Shown: positions 4,834-59,200 of the stretch, one piece after another
Numbering within the stretch: position 1 is the first letter of the stretch
Layout of the letters: each line of letters begins with the position of its first letter
Assembly: GCA_965213625.1 (NCBI GenBank)
Contig: CBDBZU010000004.1
Location: 2,407,356 to 2,471,355, forward strand
Length of the DNA stretch: 64,000 bases
Source of the DNA: a bacterium
GTDB taxonomy: Bacteria > UBA8248
Direction: 5' to 3'
Position numbers and translations under genes: made by a program
Notes under the pieces: model-generated
Databases searched by the model: none
The model's input: the letters and a program-made list of their open reading frames with translations, nothing else
What the model was told of the DNA's origin: nothing

Positions 4834-5057
4834 CACTCCCCCCTTGAGGGGGAGTCAGCGCGGCAAGGACAATGTCCGCCGCCGCGCTGGTGGGGGGTAA
4901 AACGCGTTTATTGCCATTTCGAATTATACCCCCCACCGAATCGCTTTCGGGCTTACGCCCTCAGCTCTTCGTCGGCTTTCCCCTCGGGAAGCCGACCCTC
5001 AAGGGGGGAGTGAATTTCCTATCTCATTGGATTGTAATGACTCTCAAGGGGGGAGTG
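4834..5057. repeat. palindromic repeat family C, copy 1 (CACTCCCCCCTTGAGGGGGAGTC ... CTCAAGGGGGGAGTG)
   Basis: It aligns along its length with 12471-12675. The terminal arms are reverse complements of each other. The centre 4889-4937 is bounded by GGTGGGGGGTA/TACCCCCCACC. Confidence 0.8.
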
Positions 5058-6396: not shown

Positions 6397-7602
6397 TCAC
6401 CCGTTGCAATGCGCCACTGTGGCGGTGGCGAACATGCCGGCGGCATCGACGAGGTTCTGAGCGGGCACGCGCTCGTTCGGCAGATGGGCCTCCGAGATGA
6501 ACTCGCCGGGGCCGAAGAAAACGCCCGGAACCCCGTTCTCGATGAAGAGCCTGAGCGCGCCCGGAGACTCGATACCGGGCAGGAATTCGTTCGGCGTCCC
6601 CCGCACGGCGGGGACGACTCGCTCCATGAGCTGCACGACGGGCTCATCCTCGGCGATTTCCGTGACTTCGCGCGCGCCGCTCGGCATGATCTCCACCGAC
6701 GCGTCGAATTCGGGGTCGTCCGCCGCGAGTTCTGCGAGAATACCCTCGAGCTTCTCCTTGACGCCCGCTGAGGTCTGTCCGGGCAGCATGCGCACGTCGA
6801 AGGTGGCGCTGCAGCGACCGCCCACGACGTTCACCGCGGAACCCCCGTTGATGGTGGAGAAAGCCAGCGTGCCCGGACCCAGGAAAGGATGCGGCGGAGG
6901 CGCGATGCGTTCTGCCTTGAAGGCGTCGATGATTTTCGCCATCTTCTCGATGGCGTTGACGCCCTTATCGGGCACGCTTACGTGGACGGAGCGGCCCTGC
7001 ACCTTGACCTCGAAGAACACCCGCCCCTTGAAGGAGCGGATGATGTTGTTGCCCGTCGATTCGGTGTAGAGCACCATGTCGCCGCCCAGTTCCCTGAAAA
7101 CGCCGTTGTTCACGAGTGATTGCGCGCCGTAGTAATCGCCCTTCTCGCCGTCCGATAGCAGGACCCAGGTGAGGGTGCCGTTTATGGTGATGTTCTCATC
7201 CTTGAGCGCTTTCAGCGCGCCGATGGTCGAGGCCAGCGCGCCCTTCATATCGGCGGCGCCGCGCCCCCAGATTTCGCCGTTTTTGAGTTCGCCGCTGAAG
7301 GGGGGAACCTCCCATGCGTCCACTTCTTCTGGGTGGACGGGCACGGTGTCCATGTGGCCGCCGATGACGAAGTGACCGCCCGGGCCGCCGTCTCCCGTGC
7401 GGATGATGAAGTTGGGCATCCCCGACTCGTATTCGTAGGTGGTGATATCACCTGCGCCGATGGCTTTGAGCTCCGCGAGGATGCGCTCGGCCATGTCGGA
7501 GCAGTCGCCGGGCGGGTTTTCCGCGGGTATGCGAATCAAATCCTGCGCGAGACTGACGACGTAGTCCCCATCCACGGGAACGGGGGTGATGGCGTTACTC
7601 AT
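6397..7602 (-). CDS. M20-family metallopeptidase (ArgE/DapE/ACY1-like)
   Basis: 'GGHMDTVP' and 'GRGAADMKG' motifs. The ATG at 7602 has AAGGAG 6 nt upstream. Confidence 0.85.
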   Translation of the reverse strand: MSNAITPVPVDGDYVVSLAQDLIRIPAENPPGDCSDMAERILAELKAIGAGDITTYEYESGMPNFIIRTGDGGPGGHFVIGGHMDTVPVHPEEVDAWEVPPFSGELKNGEIWGRGAADMKGALASTIGALKALKDENITINGTLTWVLLSDGEKGDYYGAQSLVNNGVFRELGGDMVLYTESTGNNIIRSFKGRVFFEVKVQGRSVHVSVPDKGVNAIEKMAKIIDAFKAERIAPPPHPFLGPGTLAFSTINGGSAVNVVGGRCSATFDVRMLPGQTSAGVKEKLEGILAELAADDPEFDASVEIMPSGAREVTEIAEDEPVVQLMERVVPAVRGTPNEFLPGIESPGALRLFIENGVPGVFFGPGEFISEAHLPNERVPAQNLVDAAGMFATATVAHCNG

Positions 7603-9760: not shown

Positions 9761-10053
9761 GGGGTTATTGAAAAACCCCTCGTCGGGTTTCCCTGCAATA
9801 CAGCCTTCCCGTCTCCCTCATCCTGAGTAGCGGCCCCTCGACTTCGCTCGGGACAAGCTCCGCCCCCACCTTCCTCATCCTGAGTAGCCGCCGAAGGTGG
9901 CGTATCGAAGGGTGCCTTCTCGCTTGTCACGAGGCGCCTCCCATCCTTCGATACGGCGCTTGCGCGCCTACTCAGGATGAGGCTTTGTTGCGGCGTGCGC
10001 CGCGTGCCCCGTCATATGTCCGATCTCGAAACCGGCTTTTTCAACAACCCCCT
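9761..10053. repeat. MITE-like element with GGGGTT(A/G)TTGAAAAA terminal inverted repeats, containing nested CTCATCCTGAGTAG...CTACTCAGGATGAG palindrome
   Basis: GGGGTTATTGAAAAACCCC (9761-9779) matches the reverse complement of GGCTTTTTCAACAACCCCC (10035-10053). The inner arms are 9877-9894 and 9968-9985. No credible ORF is present. Confidence 0.7.
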
Positions 10054-12470: not shown

Positions 12471-12675
12471 CACTCCCCCCTTGAGGGGGAGTCGGCAAGG
12501 CGAGGACGGAGTCCGAAGCCGCGCCGGTGGGGGGTATAATTCGGAATGGCAATAAAACGCATTTTACCCCCCACCGAATCAGCCTTCACCTGTCGGTTCG
12601 GCTTCCTCGACTCCCCCTCAAGGGGGGAGTGAATTTCCCCTCTACTTGGGTAGTAGTGATCCTCAAGGGGGGAGT
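12471..12675. repeat. palindromic repeat family C, copy 2
   Basis: It aligns with 4834-5057 in the same orientation, except for the centre 12526-12575, which is the reverse complement of the copy-1 centre. Confidence 0.8.
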
Positions 12676-14116: not shown

Positions 14117-14340
14117 GGGGTTGTTGAAAAAAGTCCCCTTTTCAGGGGATGGAGGGGACGTACTTATCGACTGGAAAACCAACCCCCCCTACCCCCCCTT
14201 GTCAGGGGGGTAAAAAAGGCGATGCACCCCAGCCGGGCAGAGGGGGTTTTGCTTTTTCTTGCCCCCCTGACAAGGGGGGGTAGGGGGGGTTGGTTTTATG
14301 GGGTTGCCGTTACCCACTCAAGGACTTTTTCAACAGTCCC
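14117..14340. repeat. second GGGGTTGTTGAAAAA-TIR element enclosing a perfect 36-bp inverted repeat (14175-14210 / 14262-14297)
   Basis: GGGGTTGTTGAAAAAAGTCCCC at 14117 pairs with GGACTTTTTCAACAGTCCC at 14322-14340. The inner arms AAAACCAACCCCCCCTACCCCCCCTTGTCAGGGGGG and its exact reverse complement are separated by 51 bp. Confidence 0.8.
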
Positions 14341-14553
14341 ATCAAGGAGGGAGTGAATCTTTACTCTGCTCGGTCCGGTTTAACCTCCGAGGGGAGAGTG
14401 ATTTCCCTGCCAACTCGGGAGTCATTGCACCCGTATTTGCCCGCATTTGCGGCAGGGGGGCAATGGAGAAAGATTCCGGGTATGTCGGCGCTGTGGTCCG
14501 GCCCCACTGGAGCTTATGGAATTTCCGAAATTTTCGATCGCGGCGTAAGCGCG

Positions 14554-44755: not shown

Positions 44756-46030
44756 ATGCGCAGACCCTCATATCACCCAAACCCCATACGCGGCGGCGGC
44801 AACGACGCCTACACCGGAGTGGACCACGTACTCACCGAACCCTGGGAAGAAGAGGCGCACAACGTCCGCCTCGTCGCCCATTCTGACTTGAACGGCTGGG
44901 GCGACGCCTTCCAGATTCAGGTGAGCGGCGGCATCTGTTACGTCGCGGCCTCGGGCGTGAACGGCCACGACGGCATGACGATTCTGGACGTCAAGGACCC
45001 GGCGAATCCCAAGATCATCAACCAGCTCGTCGACAGCCCCGCTGCGCGCACGCACAAGGTGCTCCGTATCAACGACGAGGTGCTGCTCACGAACTCCGAA
45101 CTCAGGCCCGCCCTGCGTGAGCAGTACCCCGACGCCATCGGCGGCCTGCGCATTTTCGACAACTGCGACCCGTTCCACCCAAAATTCGTGAACTACGTGG
45201 AAACGGATGGGTTCGGCATTCACAGGCCGATCTATGACCGAAAGCGCCAGCTTCTCTACAGTTCTGGCTTCAAGGACGGCTATGCGGGCAAGGTGCTCCT
45301 CGTTCATGACATGAAGGACCCCTGGGCGCCCGAGTTCATCGGCATGGGCCACGTCCCCGGCCAGAAAGACGGCGAAGAACCCTCCTGGGACCCCGAGATC
45401 GTGGGCGACGGCGGGTGGATTCACGAGGGTAACCCCTGGGGTAACTACGTGACGGCGGGCTATTGGGACGCCGGCATCGCGCTCTTCGATCTGACCGACC
45501 CGACGAAGCCCGAACTCATGTGGCGCCACAACCCGCATGAGACGCATGGCTGGGCGGGCTGCTACCATAGTTTCATTGTGCCGGAGGGGTCGGAATTCGG
45601 CATCGTGACGCAGGAGACCACCACGGTGAACTGCGACGACCCGCCCGCGTTCGTGACTTTCTACGATTTGAGGAACATCCACGAGCCGCTGCCGGTGAGC
45701 ACGTTCATGCCCTATGAGATCGACCCGATCGAGATGCGCCCCCTCGATGATAAATGGAACAAGACGGGCTCGCGCCACGGCGCGCACAACATCTGGCTCG
45801 ACATGACGAAGGACGACCTCATGTATATCACCTGGTTCAACGCGGGCCTCCGCGTGGTGGACTGGTCGAATCCGTTCCGTCCCAAGGAGGTGGGCTACTA
45901 CATCCCCGCCGGCACGAAGGAGCGCTGCTGCCCGCAGAGCAACGACGTGCAGGTGGACAAGGACACGGGCCTCATCTACATGGCCGACCGCTGGGGGCTG
46001 GGTCTCCACATCATGGAGTACACGGGCTAA
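44756..46030 (+). CDS. LVIVD-repeat beta-propeller-like protein
   Basis: The ATG at 44756 has GGAGGA upstream. Recurrent hydrophobic-x-D strands are present (MTILDV, LLVHDM, IALFDL, VTFYDL, LRVVDW, LIYMADR). Confidence 0.55.
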   Translation: MRRPSYHPNPIRGGGNDAYTGVDHVLTEPWEEEAHNVRLVAHSDLNGWGDAFQIQVSGGICYVAASGVNGHDGMTILDVKDPANPKIINQLVDSPAARTHKVLRINDEVLLTNSELRPALREQYPDAIGGLRIFDNCDPFHPKFVNYVETDGFGIHRPIYDRKRQLLYSSGFKDGYAGKVLLVHDMKDPWAPEFIGMGHVPGQKDGEEPSWDPEIVGDGGWIHEGNPWGNYVTAGYWDAGIALFDLTDPTKPELMWRHNPHETHGWAGCYHSFIVPEGSEFGIVTQETTTVNCDDPPAFVTFYDLRNIHEPLPVSTFMPYEIDPIEMRPLDDKWNKTGSRHGAHNIWLDMTKDDLMYITWFNAGLRVVDWSNPFRPKEVGYYIPAGTKERCCPQSNDVQVDKDTGLIYMADRWGLGLHIMEYTG

Positions 46031-46125
46031 GTTTCATCATTGCCTGCCCGGCGGTGACACGGATGTGCGGCATCGTTTTCACCTGATTGAGGACGCGGGC
46101 AGTTACTGAATTTTCGTTGGAAGAA

Positions 46126-46171
46126 GGGCCGCGGAGCGAGAGATTCGATTCTCACGCCCGCGGCCCTTTTT
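46126..46171 (+). terminator. rho-independent terminator
   Basis: GGGCCGCGG ... CCGCGGCCC followed by TTTTT. Confidence 0.7.
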
Positions 46172-46282
46172 CTCTTGAAGAAGATGGGCGCGGGCTCTAC
46201 TCGCACCTTTTTCAAATTCACGCCTCACTCGAAGTATGAATGTGGCGGAAAAGCCGCCTGGTGGGGTATTCTCCCCACACCT

Positions 46283-46368
46283 GCCCGGGTGGTGGAATGG
46301 TAGACACTAGGGACTTAAAATCCCTTGGCCGAGAGGCCGTGCCGGTTCGAGTCCGGCCCCGGGTACCA
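46283..46368 (+). tRNA. tRNA-Leu (anticodon UAA), CCA encoded
   Basis: Manual fold. Acceptor GCCCGGG/CCCGGGU (G1-U72), D-arm GTG/CAC, anticodon stem AGGGA/TCCCT with loop CT-TAA-AA, long variable arm GGCC-GAGA-GGCC, T-arm GCCGG-TTCGAGT-CCGGC, discriminator A and CCA. Confidence 0.9.
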
Positions 46369-46426
46369 TGTATACTCTCTAAGTATTTGAAAGCACTTCT
46401 GTTGCTATAGTCGGCCTTTGAAAAAG

Positions 46427-46481
46427 CCTGTGCGATGAGGTTTTCCGTCATCCATCGCGCCGGTTCCATCCGTTGAGGGAA
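46427..46481 (+). repeat. 55-bp direct repeat, copy A (left boundary of ~2-kb insertion)
   Basis: 49/55 nt are identical to 48426-48480. All 6 mismatches fall in or at the edge of the loop of the internal hairpin GCGATG(A)...(T)CATCGC. Confidence 0.8.
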
Positions 46482-46978
46482 GGCGCGAAAACCTGAAGCA
46501 GGCGAACAAGCCCTCCCGAACAGGCGTGGCCGGGCCAGGACCGGACCGTTCGAGTAGAGTGCGGGATGCCACCGGCACGCGCTCTTCGGGATGCGCGCGG
46601 CGCGCCGTCGTCTTCCCGTCCTCCGAAGTTCTGCCCGCAATGTCTTATTCACCGTTATGCTCCGGCGCCACGCAACGTCCTCTCGATAACCACCGGTCGA
46701 AGCTCCATGACCCGGCCCGAATCGCGGCATCCAGGTTTCGGTGCTTGAGTGGAAAGCGAGGCAGCAATGAAATAAGCGTGAGAGACGAAGATACGGATTC
46801 GATACGAATTTTACTGTTAAAAAAGGAAATTATGGCGATGGTTCCATACCGGCCCCGGGGCGCCATGCCGCCGTTTCCCGCGTTTCCGTGAATGCCCGAA
46901 TATCCATCCAAAACGCTTAAAAACATGAAATTAGCCAAGTCTTGATTTTCGGTTTTACCCGCTAGTGACATAAAAAAC

Positions 46979-47007
46979 TTGACGAAAAACAATATATGTA
47001 CTATGTT
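46979..47007 (+). promoter_or_regulatory. candidate sigma70 promoter (TTGACG-17 nt-TATGTT) for the XRE operon
   Basis: Read in an AT-rich stretch. The predicted TSS falls at about the ATG at 47014, which suggests a leaderless or very short-leader mRNA. Confidence 0.4.
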
Positions 47008-47013
47008 CTATAT

Positions 47014-47367
47014 ATGACACATTTTGGAAGCACTATCCGAACCCAACGTGAAAGTCTGAGACAGGAGGACCGGCGCTTTTCGCTGAGGCAGGTGGCGCAG
47101 CGGATAGGAGTCGAACCGGCCTATTTGAGCAAGATCGAGCGCGGCGACGTGGCGCCGCCTTCTGAGGCCACGACTCTGAAGCTGGCGCGGGAACTGGGCG
47201 AGGACCCGGATGTGTTGCTGGCCCTGGCGGGGAAGGTCTCGAGCGACCTGCAGGAGATTATCCGCAAAAGGCCAAAACTGTTCGCGGAGCTGATCCGCCA
47301 GATGAGAGAGGCGCCCGATGACGCCATCCTCCGGGTGGTGCGCGAGGTGCGGGACGGAGACTGGTAA
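47014..47367 (+). CDS. XRE-family helix-turn-helix transcriptional regulator
   Basis: 'FSLRQVAQRIGVEPAYLSKIERGDVAPPS' is a canonical HTH_3 motif. It has a helical C-terminal extension. An alternative ATG is at 46996. Confidence 0.8.
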   Translation: MTHFGSTIRTQRESLRQEDRRFSLRQVAQRIGVEPAYLSKIERGDVAPPSEATTLKLARELGEDPDVLLALAGKVSSDLQEIIRKRPKLFAELIRQMREAPDDAILRVVREVRDGDW

Positions 47368-47376
47368 AGGAGGATA

Positions 47377-48393
47377 ATGATGATCATTCTTAAAAACGAT
47401 TGCCTGGATATCCGGTGCCCCGAGGTTCACGACCACGCCCGGTGCCAGATCGAGTTCCAGCGCACCCTTCGTATCCCGGACGACGGGGAAGATTACTTCC
47501 TGCCCCCGGGTCTGGGTTGTTTCCCGCTGCGGCACCTGGACGACTACGCAGAGCGCCTGCCAGGGGAGTGGCTCGGCCGAGGCGGCGTGATTATGCCGAT
47601 GTTCCAGGCCGAGGCCCTGTGGATCAACTTCGATTCGGGATTCAGTGGTTCTCTTCCCTATCCATTCGCGGTGAAGATCGCGACCGGAAAAATCTGCGCG
47701 CTCACCGGCGATAACTGGGTGGACCACCTGAACACCTACCCGCAGGATTACCTCGTTTTGCCCGAGCAGCCCTGGCTCGACGGCTACTGCGTCGAAAAAG
47801 GGAGAGTCCGCCAGTTCGTGGCCATGCCCCTGGGGGAGGGTTACACCGCCGAGGAGCAGTTGCAGGGCGCCGCGCGTCTTGGCGGCCTGCAGATCGTGGC
47901 CTATCCCATGAAGCGTGAGCGCTATGAAGAGATGTGCAGAAACGTGACGGGACAGGGTTTTGTTCTGGAGAGTCCCTCGGAGATGGGCATGGGACTGGCG
48001 CCCGGCGGCCGGATGCAGCAGGAAATCTATGAGGACCCCTATGGCCTGGATGCCTGGGACCAGCGGCATCCCAGCCGGTGTTTCGTCACCATCGCCAATT
48101 CCGTCCAGTGGATGGCGATCTCGGGCGAGCGGCCGCCGGTTGAGCCGCCCACGGCCAGGGACTACACTGAGGCCGGTCTGCCCTGGTTCGATTACTACAA
48201 CGCAGACGCGGAGGCCGTTTCGGGGAGTAATGTTCTAAAGTCCCTGAAGAGTGTAGGGCAGACTGGTAAGGCGAAAAGGGAGACGCCGCTGCCGGAGAAC
48301 GAATCGATCGGCGCGTGCCGCGTCGTCAGTCTGCGGGATGTCAGAGGGCGCAAGGTACGGGAGTATCCCACCGGAGAAGTCGTTGATTCGTGA
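47377..48393 (+). CDS. hypothetical protein (338 aa), no family recognised
   Basis: A strong RBS AAGGAGG sits 9 nt after the XRE stop. The composition is non-repetitive and globular-looking, with no TM or signal peptide. The conserved-looking block 'FQRTLRIPDDGEDYFLPPGLGCFPL' is not assignable by me. Confidence 0.7.
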   Translation: MMIILKNDCLDIRCPEVHDHARCQIEFQRTLRIPDDGEDYFLPPGLGCFPLRHLDDYAERLPGEWLGRGGVIMPMFQAEALWINFDSGFSGSLPYPFAVKIATGKICALTGDNWVDHLNTYPQDYLVLPEQPWLDGYCVEKGRVRQFVAMPLGEGYTAEEQLQGAARLGGLQIVAYPMKRERYEEMCRNVTGQGFVLESPSEMGMGLAPGGRMQQEIYEDPYGLDAWDQRHPSRCFVTIANSVQWMAISGERPPVEPPTARDYTEAGLPWFDYYNADAEAVSGSNVLKSLKSVGQTGKAKRETPLPENESIGACRVVSLRDVRGRKVREYPTGEVVDS

Positions 48394-48425
48394 AGCGAAC
48401 TTTTAGAATTCGATTCATGCCGCAA

Positions 48426-48480
48426 CCTGTGCGATGAGATGTTCCGCTCTTCATCGCGCCGGTTCCATCCGTTGAGGGAA
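48426..48480 (+). repeat. 55-bp direct repeat, copy B (right boundary; contains the RBS of the CoA-transferase gene)
   Basis: It ends 2 nt before the ATG at 48483. GAGGGAA within the repeat serves as the SD. Confidence 0.8.
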
Positions 48481-48482
48481 AG

Positions 48483-49688
48483 ATGTCCGAATCGCAAGCC
48501 GCAGCGCCTTTGAGTGGGTTCCGGGTGCTGGATTTCACCCAGGTCGTCGCGGGTCCTTTCTGCGCCGCCATGCTGGCCGACATGGGGGCCGAGGTGGTGA
48601 AGGTTGAGCGCCCAGGCCACGGGGACGATACGCGCCGCATCACCCGCTACAAGGACCGCGAGGAGCACGAAGATTATTTCTATGCTAACAACCGGTCAAA
48701 AAAGAGCGTTGCCATCAACATGAAGACCGAGGCGGGCAAGGACGCCGTGCGGGCCCTGGCGGGTGAGGCCGATGCGCTCATCGAGAATATGGCGCCCGGC
48801 AAGCTGGCCGAACTCGGCCTGGGCTGGGAGGATGCCCGCGCGGCGAATCCCAGAATCGTCTACTGCTCGCTCTCGGGCTTCGGGCAGAGTGGCCCTTACC
48901 GCGACCGCGTAGGGCTCGACCCGATATTGCAGGCCGTCTCGGGCGTCATGAGCGTAACGGGCATGGAGGACCCCACCCAGATCGGCGCGCCGCTCGCCGA
49001 CGTGCTGGCGGGTATGTTCTCCGCCTACGCCATCGTGAGCGCGCTCCATGCGGTCGCCCGCGAGGGCGAGGGCCGCTATATCGACGTGAGCATGCAGGAC
49101 GCCATGGTGGCCGCTCTCGGGCCGCGCATGGGCGAGACGCTCCAGGCGGGCGTGTCGCCTGGGCGGCACGGCAACGAGAACCCCATGCGGGTGCCTGCGA
49201 ACACCTACCGTACGAGCGACGGGGAGTACGTGACCGTCATCGTGCAGCACGACGGTTTCTGGCCGGGTTTTTGCCGCGCGCTGGAAGTGGAGGACTGGCT
49301 GGAGGACCCGCGTTTTCAGACCGCGCGGGCGCGCGTGGCGAACCGTAGCGCCATCAATGAGCGCGTGTCCAAAATTTTCGCATCGCGCACGATGGCCGAG
49401 TGGGAGCAGCGCCTGGAAGCCGAACGCGTGGGTTTCTCGCCGGTGAACGACTACGAGCGCGCACTCTCGGACCCGCAAGTCGCGCACCGAGGCCTCATAA
49501 GACGAGTCGCGCACCCCGTCTCGGGGGAGATTCGCGTGGTGGGCGCGCCGTGGATCATGAGCGGGGCGCAAGCCGAAGTGAAGCCGCCGCCCCTTCTCGG
49601 CCAGCATACAGCCGAAGTGCTCAGTGAATGGCTTAAATGGCCGGAGGAGGAAGTTGCGCGCTTCATGGCGGGGGAGGGGGTAAGGTAG
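48483..49688 (+). CDS. CaiB/BaiF family III CoA-transferase
   Basis: 'FRVLDFTQVVAGPFCAAMLADMGAEVVKVERP' is the signature N-terminus. Confidence 0.9.
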   Translation: MSESQAAAPLSGFRVLDFTQVVAGPFCAAMLADMGAEVVKVERPGHGDDTRRITRYKDREEHEDYFYANNRSKKSVAINMKTEAGKDAVRALAGEADALIENMAPGKLAELGLGWEDARAANPRIVYCSLSGFGQSGPYRDRVGLDPILQAVSGVMSVTGMEDPTQIGAPLADVLAGMFSAYAIVSALHAVAREGEGRYIDVSMQDAMVAALGPRMGETLQAGVSPGRHGNENPMRVPANTYRTSDGEYVTVIVQHDGFWPGFCRALEVEDWLEDPRFQTARARVANRSAINERVSKIFASRTMAEWEQRLEAERVGFSPVNDYERALSDPQVAHRGLIRRVAHPVSGEIRVVGAPWIMSGAQAEVKPPPLLGQHTAEVLSEWLKWPEEEVARFMAGEGVR

Positions 49689-49785
49689 GTGAGAGAAAAA
49701 CAGCCCCTTGATAATGATAGCATAATTTGCTAGCATTTGCTTGGTAGATGTAACATCTGCATGTAGAAGAGCAGGAGGCTATGCG

Positions 49786-50043
49786 ATGAGCGCCACGATT
49801 ACAGTCCGGAATATGGATGATGGGGACAAGGCTTGGGTCAGGCGTGAGGCGCGGCGTCTCGGGGTCTCGATGGAGGAGTTCGTTCGCCGTCTCATACACG
49901 AGAGACGGGAGAAGGATGAAAACCGCGCCAAGCCCTCCGAGATATTCAAGCGATATTTTGGCCCTGAATACGGCGTTGAACTGCTGCCGCGTGTCCGCTA
50001 CGGCTATCGCCCGCTCGACCTGAGCGATGGAGAGGAGGCGTGA
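49786..50043 (+). CDS. FitA/VapB-like ribbon-helix-helix antitoxin
   Basis: 'MSATITVRNMDDGDKAWVRREARRLGVSMEEFVRRLI' is Arc/RHH-type. AGGAGG lies upstream and it overlaps the PIN gene. Confidence 0.75.
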   Translation: MSATITVRNMDDGDKAWVRREARRLGVSMEEFVRRLIHERREKDENRAKPSEIFKRYFGPEYGVELLPRVRYGYRPLDLSDGEEA

Positions 50044-50489
50044 GCGGGCCTTTTGCCTATTTGCTTGACACCAACGTCGTTTCGGAAATGATGCGCCCGA
50101 ACCCGGAGCCTCGCGTTACGACGTGTATCGACGCAATTGCCGAAGAGGGAATAGCTCTCGCTTCCATCACCGTGTGGGAAATACTCGACGGCATCGGTCG
50201 TCTCCCTCCGGGCCGACGCCGCGAGGAGCTTGCCGAGCGTTTTCAAGGGGTTCTCGAAGACCTCTTCGAGGATAGCGTGCTCGATTGGGCTTTCAGCGAC
50301 GCAAAGGTCTGCGCCCGAGTGATGGAGGAAAAACGCAGGCGGGGCGAATCGCTGGACGACCACTTGCCGGATGCCATGCTCGCCGGAATGGCCCTTTCCC
50401 GAGGGCTTTCACTCATCACGCGAAACGAGAGAGATTTCCGCAATACCGGTGTTACCTTAATTGATCCATGGAAACGCGCGCGGTCTTGA
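50040..50489 (+). CDS. vapC: VapC/FitB-type PIN-domain toxin
   Basis: 'YLLDTNVVSE' provides the first acidic residue and 'ITRNERDF' is the C-terminal motif. The GTG start overlaps the antitoxin stop. Confidence 0.8.
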   Translation: MSGPFAYLLDTNVVSEMMRPNPEPRVTTCIDAIAEEGIALASITVWEILDGIGRLPPGRRREELAERFQGVLEDLFEDSVLDWAFSDAKVCARVMEEKRRRGESLDDHLPDAMLAGMALSRGLSLITRNERDFRNTGVTLIDPWKRARS

Positions 50490-58978: not shown

Positions 58979-59200
58979 GGGGTTGTTGAAAAACCCGGCA
59001 TTTGAACAAACGCATTCTCCTCGCCTTGCATGCCTACGTATCTGCCTCACCCTGAGTAGCCGCCGGAGGCGGCGTATCGAAGGGCGCTCTCCCTCGATAC
59101 GGCGCGCAAGCGCGCCTACTCGGGATGAGGATGGTTTTATGGATAAGGGCGACGAATGCGCTACACGCAATTTCCCTTTAACGAGGACTTTTTCAAAAAC
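58979..59200. repeat. third GGGGTTGTTGAAAAA-TIR element with nested CTGAGTAGCC...CGTATCGAAGG palindrome
   Basis: GGGGTTGTTGAAAAACCC (58979-58996) pairs with GGACTTTTTCAAAAACCC (59183-59200). The inner part 59045-59125 is homologous to 9877-9985. A solo GGGATTGTTGAAAAAG lies at 58924. Confidence 0.7.

Follow-up and report, generated by a model that had tools for sequence, protein, structure and literature searches.

A two-gene cassette of an XRE-family regulator and a protein of an undescribed family beside a tRNA-Leu gene in a UBA8248 bacterium

The analysed DNA is a 64,000-nucleotide stretch of a bacterial genome (GTDB lineage Bacteria; UBA8248; assembly GCA_965213625.1, contig CBDBZU010000004.1, forward-strand positions 2,407,356 to 2,471,355), referred to below as the window and numbered from its first letter. 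Between positions 46283 and 48482 a tRNA-Leu(UAA) gene is followed by two adjacent genes on the same strand, encoding a regulator of the XRE family and a protein here called P338, and then, from 48483 on, by a gene for a family III coenzyme A (CoA) transferase. An earlier note, made from the letters of the window, had described this region as an insertion of ~2 kb bracketed by 55-bp direct repeats, and had proposed the gene pair as an undescribed toxin-antitoxin or anti-phage system. The individual elements of that description, i.e., the tRNA gene, the two 55-nt copies with their loop mismatches and hairpin, the promoter, the XRE gene and the 338-aa open reading frame (ORF), were all confirmed at their coordinates. 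The features of the locus are as follows, with compared loci designated by L numbers.

46283-46368, plus strand: tRNA-Leu(UAA) gene (ARAGORN; 56 bits against the Rfam tRNA model), whose 3' end, GCCCCGGGTACCA, is the recombination core of the locus
46369-46426, plus strand: 58-nt spacer, the native sequence after tRNA-Leu, giving an attB-like tRNA|spacer junction; this spacer also stands after a tRNA 3' remnant in L008
46427-46481, plus strand: copy A of the 55-nt repeat, a duplicated 5' leader of the CoA-transferase gene with a hairpin
46482-46814, plus strand: orphan non-coding stretch, which in relatives continues into a 9.28-kb ATP-binding cassette (ABC) transporter operon
46815-46829: deletion junction or filler at the place of the absent ABC-transporter operon (aligned against L086, L087 and L001)
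46840-46865, plus strand: degenerate copy of the tRNA-Leu 3' end (GGTTCCATACCGGCCCCGGGGCGCCA; repeat family D4), giving an attP-like remnant|cassette junction
46866-47013, plus strand: AT-rich promoter region of the cassette (promoter scan; cross-phylum conservation)
47014-47367, plus strand: XRE-family repressor gene, 117 aa (Pfam HTH_31 and HTH_3)
47367-47373, plus strand: Shine-Dalgarno sequence AAGGAGG of the second gene
47380-48393, plus strand: gene of the effector candidate P338, 337 aa from the ATG at 47380 (the ORF opens at 47377)
48426-48480, plus strand: copy B of the 55-nt repeat, the native 5' leader and Shine-Dalgarno sequence of the CoA-transferase gene
48483-49688, plus strand: family III CoA-transferase gene (Pfam CoA_transf_3, 4e-126), a backbone gene outside the cassette

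The XRE and P338 genes form a regulator-first, self-contained and horizontally transferred two-gene cassette of an undescribed family. An XRE gene lies directly upstream of the P338 gene, on the same strand, in 85 of 85 loci from more than ten phyla, so that the consistent pairing raised by the earlier note holds throughout; the single exception is a degenerate copy in L081, a locus that holds a second, intact cassette. The upstream regulators in the fetched loci match the XRE protein of the window with phmmer E-values of 1e-41 to 1e-72. The gap from the stop codon of the XRE gene to the start of the P338 gene is most commonly 12 nt (77 loci), and a Shine-Dalgarno-like motif precedes the P338 gene in 75 of 77 loci. 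When the ORFs of the 85 loci were clustered all against all, no third conserved gene family emerged. The pairing is kept even at 35-47% identity in cultured Euzebya and Bosea plasmids, as well as in L090; the cultured carriers are Euzebya pacifica DY32-46 (WP_114594674.1/WP_114594673.1) and Bosea sp. RAC05 (WP_069052717.1/WP_069052716.1). The reversed order, a P338-type gene followed by a helix-turn-helix (HTH) gene, is found for some distant members, on a Miltoncostaea oceani plasmid (L165, 4959-6382), where the two genes overlap by 1 nt, and in L169 (842-2204). Tandem or multiple copies of the cassette occur in L031 and L081.

The family is large and widely spread. More than 7,700 homologues of P338 are present in a 90%-clustered protein collection, all of them unnamed or annotated as 'hypothetical' and none with a Pfam domain, and an exhaustive HMMER search (E <=1e-3) delineates a superfamily of 3,610 clusters at 50% identity. 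At least 581 P338 loci were found in a scan of one genome per GTDB species. The P338 protein is 97% identical in a metagenome-assembled genome (MAG) of the Nitrospinae, and ~59-69% identical in Chloroflexota, Alpha- and Gammaproteobacteria, Acidobacteriota, Gemmatimonadota, Binatia, Latescibacterota and Spirochaetia. The genomic settings of the cassette are variable rather than core-genome, and across 80 genomes the genes beside it are of diverse kinds, for the most part metabolic. A search of 57 other loci, reaching up to 220 nt from the cassette, gave no direct or inverted repeats beyond the level of shuffled sequences. A tRNA gene lies within 1.5 kb of the cassette in 11 of 80 loci, where a rough estimate gives ~4 by chance, for loci that are not independent of one another. 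In independent lineages the cassette stands within 50-150 nt of another tRNA gene, for example tRNA-Arg(tct) in L009 and L010 and tRNA-Thr(tgt) in L036.

The cassette is preceded by a promoter with a -35 box TTGACG (46979-46984) and a -10 box TATGTT (47002-47007) at 17-nt spacing, identified by a promoter scan in a region with a GC content of 0.39 (window 0.60). Conservation places the start of the XRE gene at the ATG at 47014 and not at the in-frame upstream ATG at 46996. Among 99 distinct upstream sequences, 70 have TTGAC at 30-42 nt before the XRE start codon, with a distance of exactly 35 nt in 45 of them, and the cross-phylum consensus reads CTTGACa-N8-a-TgTgTacTAt.ta..AcAcATGAc. Since the -35 hexamer begins 35 nt before the A of the ATG, transcription would start at the start codon itself; this comparative evidence indicates a leaderless XRE mRNA and bears out the near-leaderless transcript proposed earlier for the window. 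In contrast to the XRE gene, the P338 gene has a strong Shine-Dalgarno sequence. Its favoured start is the second ATG, at 47380, which lies 6 nt after AAGGAGG and gives a protein of 337 aa, because the homologues and the Shine-Dalgarno spacing agree on this position. The combination of a leaderless regulator and a Shine-Dalgarno-driven partner, which sets the cassette apart from type II toxin-antitoxin systems, suggests control mainly at the level of transcription.

A dyad of the TGTGTAC-TATATA-...ACACA type is centred on the -10 box. The dyad elements of the window (46992-47022) overlap the -10 box, the +1 site and the start codon, and include a second dyad, ATGTTCTATATAT/ATATATGACACAT, which extends from the -10 box to position +9 (47003-47022). 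Because the dyad covers the -10 box and the +1 site, the XRE protein would be expected to repress its own operon by binding there.

The XRE protein contains HTH_31 and HTH_3 domains (Pfam, 1e-10) and matches the capH model of PADLOC over residues 13-108 (8e-8), and among its relatives at 39-48% identity the next gene encodes a Peptidase_M78 (ImmA-like) protein. By sequence it is thus placed in the ImmR/CapH-like branch of the XRE family. The region of its C-terminal helix is conserved and terminates in ...VREVRDGDW (alignment A5). This end (47335-47364) is invariant, and the tail of P338 likewise has a nearly invariant V-R-E at residues 327-329 (48352-48366). The shared V-R-E may represent a short motif that serves, for instance, in mutual or competitive binding.

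The placement of the regulator raises the question whether P338 is a sensor or anti-repressor that inactivates the XRE protein, in a mobile-element switch like ImmR/ImmA or CapH/CapP, rather than an effector. The cassette shares with these systems a regulator of the same branch, encoded first, with its partner immediately after; the match to capH and the Peptidase_M78 genes that follow distant XRE relatives point in the same direction. Integrative elements keep their immunity and integration genes beside att sites, and at the tRNA-Leu gene the cassette indeed sits beside an att-like remnant, while in L098 it adjoins an integrase gene. In contrast to ImmA and CapP, P338 is not a metallopeptidase of the M78/ImmA type, as it has neither an HExxH motif nor a match to M78. 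A switch should also have genes to control, but no conserved downstream operon is present in the 85 loci, in most of which the pair stands alone among metabolic genes, so that the pair is the whole unit. A switch of this kind is therefore quite improbable.

No match to P338 was found in Pfam, NCBIfam, PADLOC or PHROGs (PADLOC-DB v2 gave 0 families at E <=1), and 66 members of the family scanned singly at E <=5 matched no model either, Peptidase_M78 included. Searches of PDB sequences with two profiles (A1 and A2) gave nothing beyond a chance match to enoyl-CoA hydratase (E 0.64). A structural model of P338 was calculated with AlphaFold2 from 66 diverse sequences, with a pLDDT of 87 and a pTM of 0.85; a first run with 26 close homologues had given a poor model (pLDDT 54). 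The predicted structure consists of a β-rich globular body, comprising approximately residues 1-270 with a variable loop at residues 190-205, followed by a helical and less conserved tail. A Foldseek search with this model against the PDB gave nothing significant (best E 0.064, TM <0.2), and the matches to β-sandwich proteins among its results (lytic polysaccharide monooxygenase, P19 and p53) are at chance level (E >=0.06, TM <0.2). With four libraries of hidden Markov models (HMMs), the PDB sequences and the Foldseek search against the PDB all negative, the protein stays unmatched to any family, as the earlier note had found it.

The near-invariant polar residues of the family are R29, T30, R32, E79, Y125, Q131, D135, Q146, E159, Q161, Q172, Q215 and Y263. 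Several assignments were considered and discarded. A metallopeptidase is contradicted by the missing M78 match and by the absence of an HExxH motif from the sequence. Homology to ARPP-1 was rejected on an hhalign probability of 0.1% against an ARPP-1 sequence. A recombinase, an idea that came from the att-like neighbourhood, is unlikely: the model has no match to an RNase H or recombinase fold, signature His or Ser residues are lacking, although the conserved Tyr125 and Tyr263 leave a catalytic tyrosine possible, and the eukaryotic versions are fused to ubiquitin and RING domains and bacterial ones to trypsin.

Fusions and distant homologues connect the family with other proteins. Distant members are fused to Sel1, TPR, VWA, DUF932 or Trypsin_2 domains. 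In a transcript of the protist Entosiphon sulcatum (P0234) an N-terminal ubiquitin and a C-terminal RING domain surround the P338 domain; a further, ubiquitin-like insert, which ends in LRLRGGG, is located in the variable loop immediately before the conserved G-x-A-x-GG-R motif of the family. Another homologue, presumably eukaryotic (P0256), begins with a UBA domain. Among the predicted viral structures of BFVD the P338 model matches uncharacterised Harvfovirus proteins (E 1e-21, query-normalised TM 0.72 and 0.67), and also a 'ubiquitin-like domain-containing protein' of Hyperionvirus (E 3e-9) and other giant-virus proteins. In two large IMG/VR contigs (L128, 3373-4517, and L129, 3351-4613) the P338 match is split around loop residues ~180-205, which is consistent with large loop insertions as in the bacterial members of 420-480 aa.

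These eukaryote-like features allow P338 to be viewed as a host-interaction (symbiosis) factor acting on the ubiquitin system of a host, with the XRE protein merely as its regulator. The closest relatives come from MAGs named as sponge symbionts (Ca. Palauibacter rhopaloidicola; RHO, COS and APA bins), and sponges are among the habitats of the group of Ca. Palauibacter rhopaloidicola (PMC10469786). The fusions of the eukaryotic and presumably eukaryotic homologues to ubiquitin plus RING and to UBA, the fold matches to giant-virus proteins, one with a ubiquitin-like domain, and the Sel1 and TPR fusions fit such a role as well. Yet P338 lacks a signal peptide and is not linked to secretion genes; more distant members are found in MAGs that by name are apparently from soil, sediment and cold seeps, as well as in free-living cultured bacteria; and bacterial relatives occur in contexts (STAND/EAD1, caspase and trypsin, AbiE) that are typical of intracellular conflict systems. 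A role in symbiosis is accordingly very improbable.

These conflict contexts are of several kinds. In L031 (2294-10259) two 95%-identical cassettes have AbiEi(DUF6088)/AbiEii genes between them, plus a DUF2335 gene, and a third XRE gene is followed 129 nt later by an ARPP-1 gene (PF20208, 1e-99); the third XRE protein differs from that of the neighbouring cassette at 3 of 117 residues. ARPP proteins are predicted components of conflict systems that are also found in two-gene units with transcription factors (Iyer et al. 2022, PMC9503650). L090 encodes a 424-aa relative of P338 and an XRE protein among NmeDI_C, SNF2/NOV_C and Prim-Pol/DUF3987 genes. A relative with a Trypsin_2 fusion is flanked by EAD1/nSTAND1 and EAD1/trypsin genes, and on a conjugative plasmid of Bradyrhizobium a relative is followed by genes for an M12 peptidase, a caspase and a trypsin-like protein. 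The setting of the Trypsin_2 fusion corresponds to a described type of NTP-dependent conflict system, which combines EAD/STAND components with peptidase effectors (Kaur et al. 2020, PMC7159879). In IMG/VR, 34 viral contigs encode P338 relatives, 15 of them together with an XRE gene; in L098 the cassette lies at the end of a viral contig beside a serine integrase gene, and in L105 beside primase, LPD37 and DarB-like genes. By association only, these contexts place the XRE/P338 pair among the modules of biological conflicts and mobile elements.

The resemblance to the described conflict systems has its limits. Distant P338 members share their surroundings with the EAD/STAND systems (PMC7159879), being fused to trypsin beside EAD1/nSTAND1 genes or encoded beside caspase, trypsin and M12 peptidase genes, but the cassette of the window has no NTPase, EAD or peptidase. 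The systems of a transcription factor and an ARPP protein (PMC9503650) have in common with the cassette the combination of one transcription factor with a single effector, and in L031 an XRE gene of the same family adjoins an ARPP-1 gene. Judged by Pfam models, the P338 family is not among the domains defined in either study, and a description of the family was not found in a literature search. In the libraries and literature searched, the effector family, its fold, its cross-kingdom reach and the leaderless design of the cassette are thus undescribed, whereas an XRE-gated two-gene mobile cassette is a known kind of system.

In its organization the pair is closest to the type II toxin-antitoxin systems with XRE or other HTH regulators (HipB/HipA, HigA-type, Xre/RES). 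These are likewise coupled gene pairs, usually with the HTH gene first and a dyad at the promoter, with a patchy horizontal distribution, a presence on plasmids and prophages, an occasionally reversed order and multiple copies. If the cassette were a classical system of this type, P338 would be a constitutively toxic enzyme, which the XRE protein neutralises by binding besides repressing the operon, as in HipB/HipA and Xre/RES. The antitoxin-first order, the 12-nt gap and the dyad over the promoter agree with this, as do the reversed pairs, the tandem copies in L031 and L081 and the cassettes on plasmids and prophages. The conserved C-terminal extension of the XRE protein could hold the partner, and the window has a FitA/PIN toxin-antitoxin pair 1.3 kb downstream of the cassette. 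On the other hand, P338 belongs to no known toxin family and its fold has no match in the PDB. Type II systems need an excess of antitoxin, which is not obvious with a strong Shine-Dalgarno sequence before the P338 gene and a leaderless XRE mRNA. In addition P338 is well conserved, and the loci inspected included no full-length copy that was disrupted. A classical type II system is for these reasons an unlikely description of the pair.

The reading that we favour, with a probability of about 0.5, is that of an autonomous, horizontally transferred, XRE-gated conflict cassette with a new effector family. A promoter of the sigma-70 type (TTGACA-17-TAnnnT) would fire at or next to the A of the XRE start codon and yield a leaderless XRE mRNA. 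The 117-aa XRE protein most likely binds to the dyad over the -10 box and the +1 site, and in this way would repress its own bicistronic operon. The second gene, 12 nt past the XRE stop codon and with its strong Shine-Dalgarno sequence, would provide a soluble cargo or effector of ~337 aa. As a conflict module the cassette may serve in defence against phages and mobile elements or in addiction: the effector would be kept low by the XRE protein, and loss or inactivation of the latter would release the effector, to the harm of the invader or of the cell. The leaderless first cistron together with the consensus promoter would make the unit portable between phyla.

Several observations weigh against this interpretation. 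The defence and toxin-antitoxin families that flank the cassette in 80 genomes are few (AbiEii three times; PIN and Uma2 twice each; type I methyltransferase, DpdF, SoFic and PsyrT once each), and by a reading of two family lists ~10 of 133 flanking proteins are related to defence or toxin-antitoxin systems, i.e., a weak enrichment; the genes next to the cassette are for the most part metabolic. The adjacency of the XRE and ARPP-1 genes in L031 may reflect re-use of the regulator with another cargo, or an accident of local duplication. Defence effectors usually diversify fast, and the ~65% identity of P338 across phyla is unusually conservative for them. The clade of the window keeps the left half-site of the canonical dyad (TATGTAC), while the right half has diverged. 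Finally, the conserved polar residues of P338 (R29, R32, E79, Y125, D135, Q146, E159 and Q161) match no recognised catalytic signature, so that P338 may be a binding protein rather than an enzyme. Of the enrichments that the earlier note had brought up, that in defence islands is modest to weak, and the proximity to tRNA genes (11 of 80 loci) is modest. Its proposal of an undescribed toxin-antitoxin or anti-phage system stands as a candidate reading, in so far as the pair is undescribed and, by association, occurs in conflict contexts.

The history of the tRNA-Leu locus is distinct from that of the cassette. The two 55-nt copies are identical at 49 of 55 positions (89%); copy A begins 58 nt past the tRNA gene, and copy B ends 2 nt before the ATG of the CoA-transferase gene. 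The six mismatches (repeat positions 14, 16, 22, 23, 24 and 26) all lie between the GCGATGA and TCATCGC arms. A hairpin is predicted in every 55-nt copy, and L007 and L008 have changes in it that are compatible with G-U pairing, but its stability is not above that of shuffled sequences (z -0.6 to -1.9), so that the element may or may not act as a stable regulatory hairpin. The invariant 29-nt half of the repeat occurs exactly twice in the window, with 0 occurrences expected from 100 shuffles, and the repeat is one of just five direct-repeat families of at least 40 nt there. A dispersed repeat of the repetitive extragenic palindromic (REP) type, which the earlier note had named among the findings that would speak against it, or of the miniature inverted-repeat transposable element (MITE) type was rejected: the exact 24-nt core was found in only three stretches of metagenome contigs, and all three belong to this locus. 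Rfam covariance models applied to 45500-49500 (E <=1) gave only the tRNA above chance and left the 55-nt element and 46369-47013 unmatched. In agreement with the ~500 bp without a credible ORF of the earlier note, no conserved ORF was found in 46369-46995.

Every relative examined (L001-L008 and L086) has a 55-nt leader before its CoA-transferase gene, which identifies copy B as the native leader that supplies the Shine-Dalgarno sequence of this gene. In the species-level relatives L006 and L007 (~88-90% DNA identity to the window, with a common LVIVD gene), the order is tRNA-Leu, ~20 nt, cassette, single leader and CoA-transferase, without spacer and without copy A. In the strain-level relative L086 (~93-95% identity) 11.3 kb separate the 55-nt copies, in the order tRNA-Leu, spacer, copy A, a 350-bp stretch, the 9.28-kb operon, a degenerate copy of the tRNA 3' end, cassette, copy B and CoA-transferase. 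The operon encodes an ABC transporter with a substrate-binding protein (SBP), four permeases and four ATPases, together with YtkA. Copy A is also present in L087, and both L086 and L087 are homologous to the window until 46809-46814, where SBP, permease, ATPase and YtkA genes follow; since the contiguity of L087 and L088 is not established, the cassette of the L087 contig was left out of the comparison. L001-L005 display the right part of the L086 arrangement. Alignment with L086, L087 and L001 shows the window to be L086 minus the ABC-transporter operon, with the junction at 46814/46830, and the missing operon explains why copy A is followed by no gene. We infer that the window is a deletion derivative that has lost the 9.3-kb operon, and the direction of the rearrangements is read in the same way.

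The relatives carry the same two genes without flanking repeats, an observation that the earlier note had itself named as one that would speak against its view. The reading of an insertion of ~2 kb bracketed by 55-bp repeats is not supported, given the single leader of L006 and L007, the 11.3 kb between the copies of L086 and the 57 repeat-free loci elsewhere; the contexts of the pair are variable, and thus not the conserved core-genome setting that the same passage had envisaged. The comparison indicates instead that the 55-nt repeats arose when local rearrangement duplicated the leader of the CoA-transferase gene, and that they are not the ends of the cassette. The scars of local recombination are, on the same evidence, the remnants of the tRNA-Leu 3' end. 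The 3' end of the tRNA gene is repeated in the window (46344-46368 and 46840-46865), and the remnant at 46840-46865 aligns with the genuine tRNA 3' end in L006-L008 as well as with the L008 remnant. In L008 the order is tRNA-Leu, cassette, a 610-bp segment, a tRNA 3' remnant (~7586-7601), the 58-nt spacer, leader and CoA-transferase; remnant, spacer and leader here directly precede the CoA-transferase gene, in support of the ancestral order of tRNA, leader and CoA-transferase gene proposed earlier. The ~170 bp to the left of the remnant are homologous between L008 and L001/L086. The 610-bp segment is absent from the window, L006 and L007, and includes a 69-aa ORF (L008, 7066-7275; MSMTFEEFQEMIEIGKQWEE...) without a Pfam match.

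All four possible junctions are seen among these loci, tRNA|spacer, tRNA|cassette, remnant|cassette and remnant|spacer, which resemble attB, attL, attP and attR, respectively. They are as expected from reciprocal recombination at the tRNA 3' core, and the blocks of the locus therefore appear to have been permuted there, possibly with the involvement of a crossover in the 55-nt leader as well. No recombinase was recognised in 46283-48482, with the remainder of the window not scanned with HMMs, nor in the Pfam-tagged genes of L001-L005 or the ORFs of L008, L086 and L087. An empty site was not recovered in relatives; one metagenome scan gave only three stretches, all of them this locus. The locus has in common with tRNA-associated islands the adjoining tRNA gene, the degenerate repeats of the tRNA 3' end and the variable content between att-like sites. 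Unlike such islands, it has no integrase found in it and its 55-nt repeats are not derived from the tRNA, and the cassette is present in all relatives examined, so that the ABC-transporter operon is the variable part.

Alternatively, in a wider version of the model of the earlier note, everything between the 55-nt copies (1.94 kb in the window, 11.3 kb in L086) could be one insert, which entered an empty site of tRNA, leader and CoA-transferase by a crossover in the leader. L008 keeps the remnant, spacer, leader and CoA-transferase of such a site, and the window and L086 keep its tRNA, spacer and leader; all four att-type junctions at the tRNA 3' core are present, and a circle carrying a copy of the leader would, by a single leader crossover, give the exact order of L086. 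In the absence of an empty site from the recovered loci and of a recombinase nearby, and with L006 and L007 holding the cassette with a single leader, this origin is possible but doubtful; the data also fit a second insertion at the tRNA gene into an L006-like ancestor. Either way, the repeats belong to this lineage only and not to the cassette.

The surroundings of the cassette show further variation. The CoA-transferase gene adjoins the cassette only in the lineage of the window (L001-L008); in L045 and L067 a CoA-transferase gene lies ~1 kb downstream of the cassette on the opposite strand. The pair located 1.3 kb downstream of the cassette in the window consists of a FitA-like ribbon-helix-helix antitoxin gene (49741-50043) and a PIN-domain toxin gene (50040-50489), which overlap by 4 nt; it is kept in L001-L005, while L007 retains FitA alone, in part. 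Between the PIN and cupin genes the closest relatives have a minus-strand gene for a 532-aa protein (L001, 9185-10783) with only a weak match to Porin_O_P. This gene is absent from the window (50489/50511), so that less than 4 kb from the cassette there is a second presence/absence polymorphism. On the other side of the tRNA gene, a 15-bp inverted repeat with 93% complementarity (GAAGAAGGGCCGCGG/CCGCGGCCCTTTTTC, 46120-46172) lies 3' of the LVIVD-repeat gene and is probably its terminator; in Rfam it gave only microRNA and hepatitis C virus matches at chance level. Dispersed G/C-tract repeats of the CCCTCAAGGGGGGAGTG type are present in the window at 4834-5056, 12471-12675, 14175-14399, 9870-9915 and 59042-59087, and include a 43-nt palindrome (95%) at 14175-14297. 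In L006-L008 copies of this type lie between the LVIVD gene and the tRNA-Leu gene, a site at which the window has none.

For the locus, these results correct the local picture, in that the repeats mark rearrangements at a tRNA-Leu hotspot and not the borders of a cassette. For the family, they identify a very large group of proteins without a Pfam model, solved structure or annotation, together with a minimal conserved package of ~1.5 kb (promoter, operator, leaderless XRE gene and Shine-Dalgarno-driven effector gene) that is directly testable and should be expressed in many hosts. If the cassette is a defence or addiction module, P338 would represent a new class of effectors, and the pair an example of a cassette built to work across phyla. 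A more speculative view, for which the odds are clearly against, is that P338 is a new cross-kingdom domain and fold, which in bacteria serves as the single effector or sensor of a portable, promoter-complete XRE-gated immunity cassette that passes between phyla with the help of leaderless translation, and which giant viruses and protists have recruited into ubiquitin-linked proteins; it would then be a prokaryotic forerunner of some part of the ubiquitin-dependent immunity or cell death of eukaryotes. The eukaryotic fusions to ubiquitin, UBA and RING domains and the giant-virus homologues mark the family as a possible link from the conflict systems of bacteria to the ubiquitin machinery of eukaryotes.

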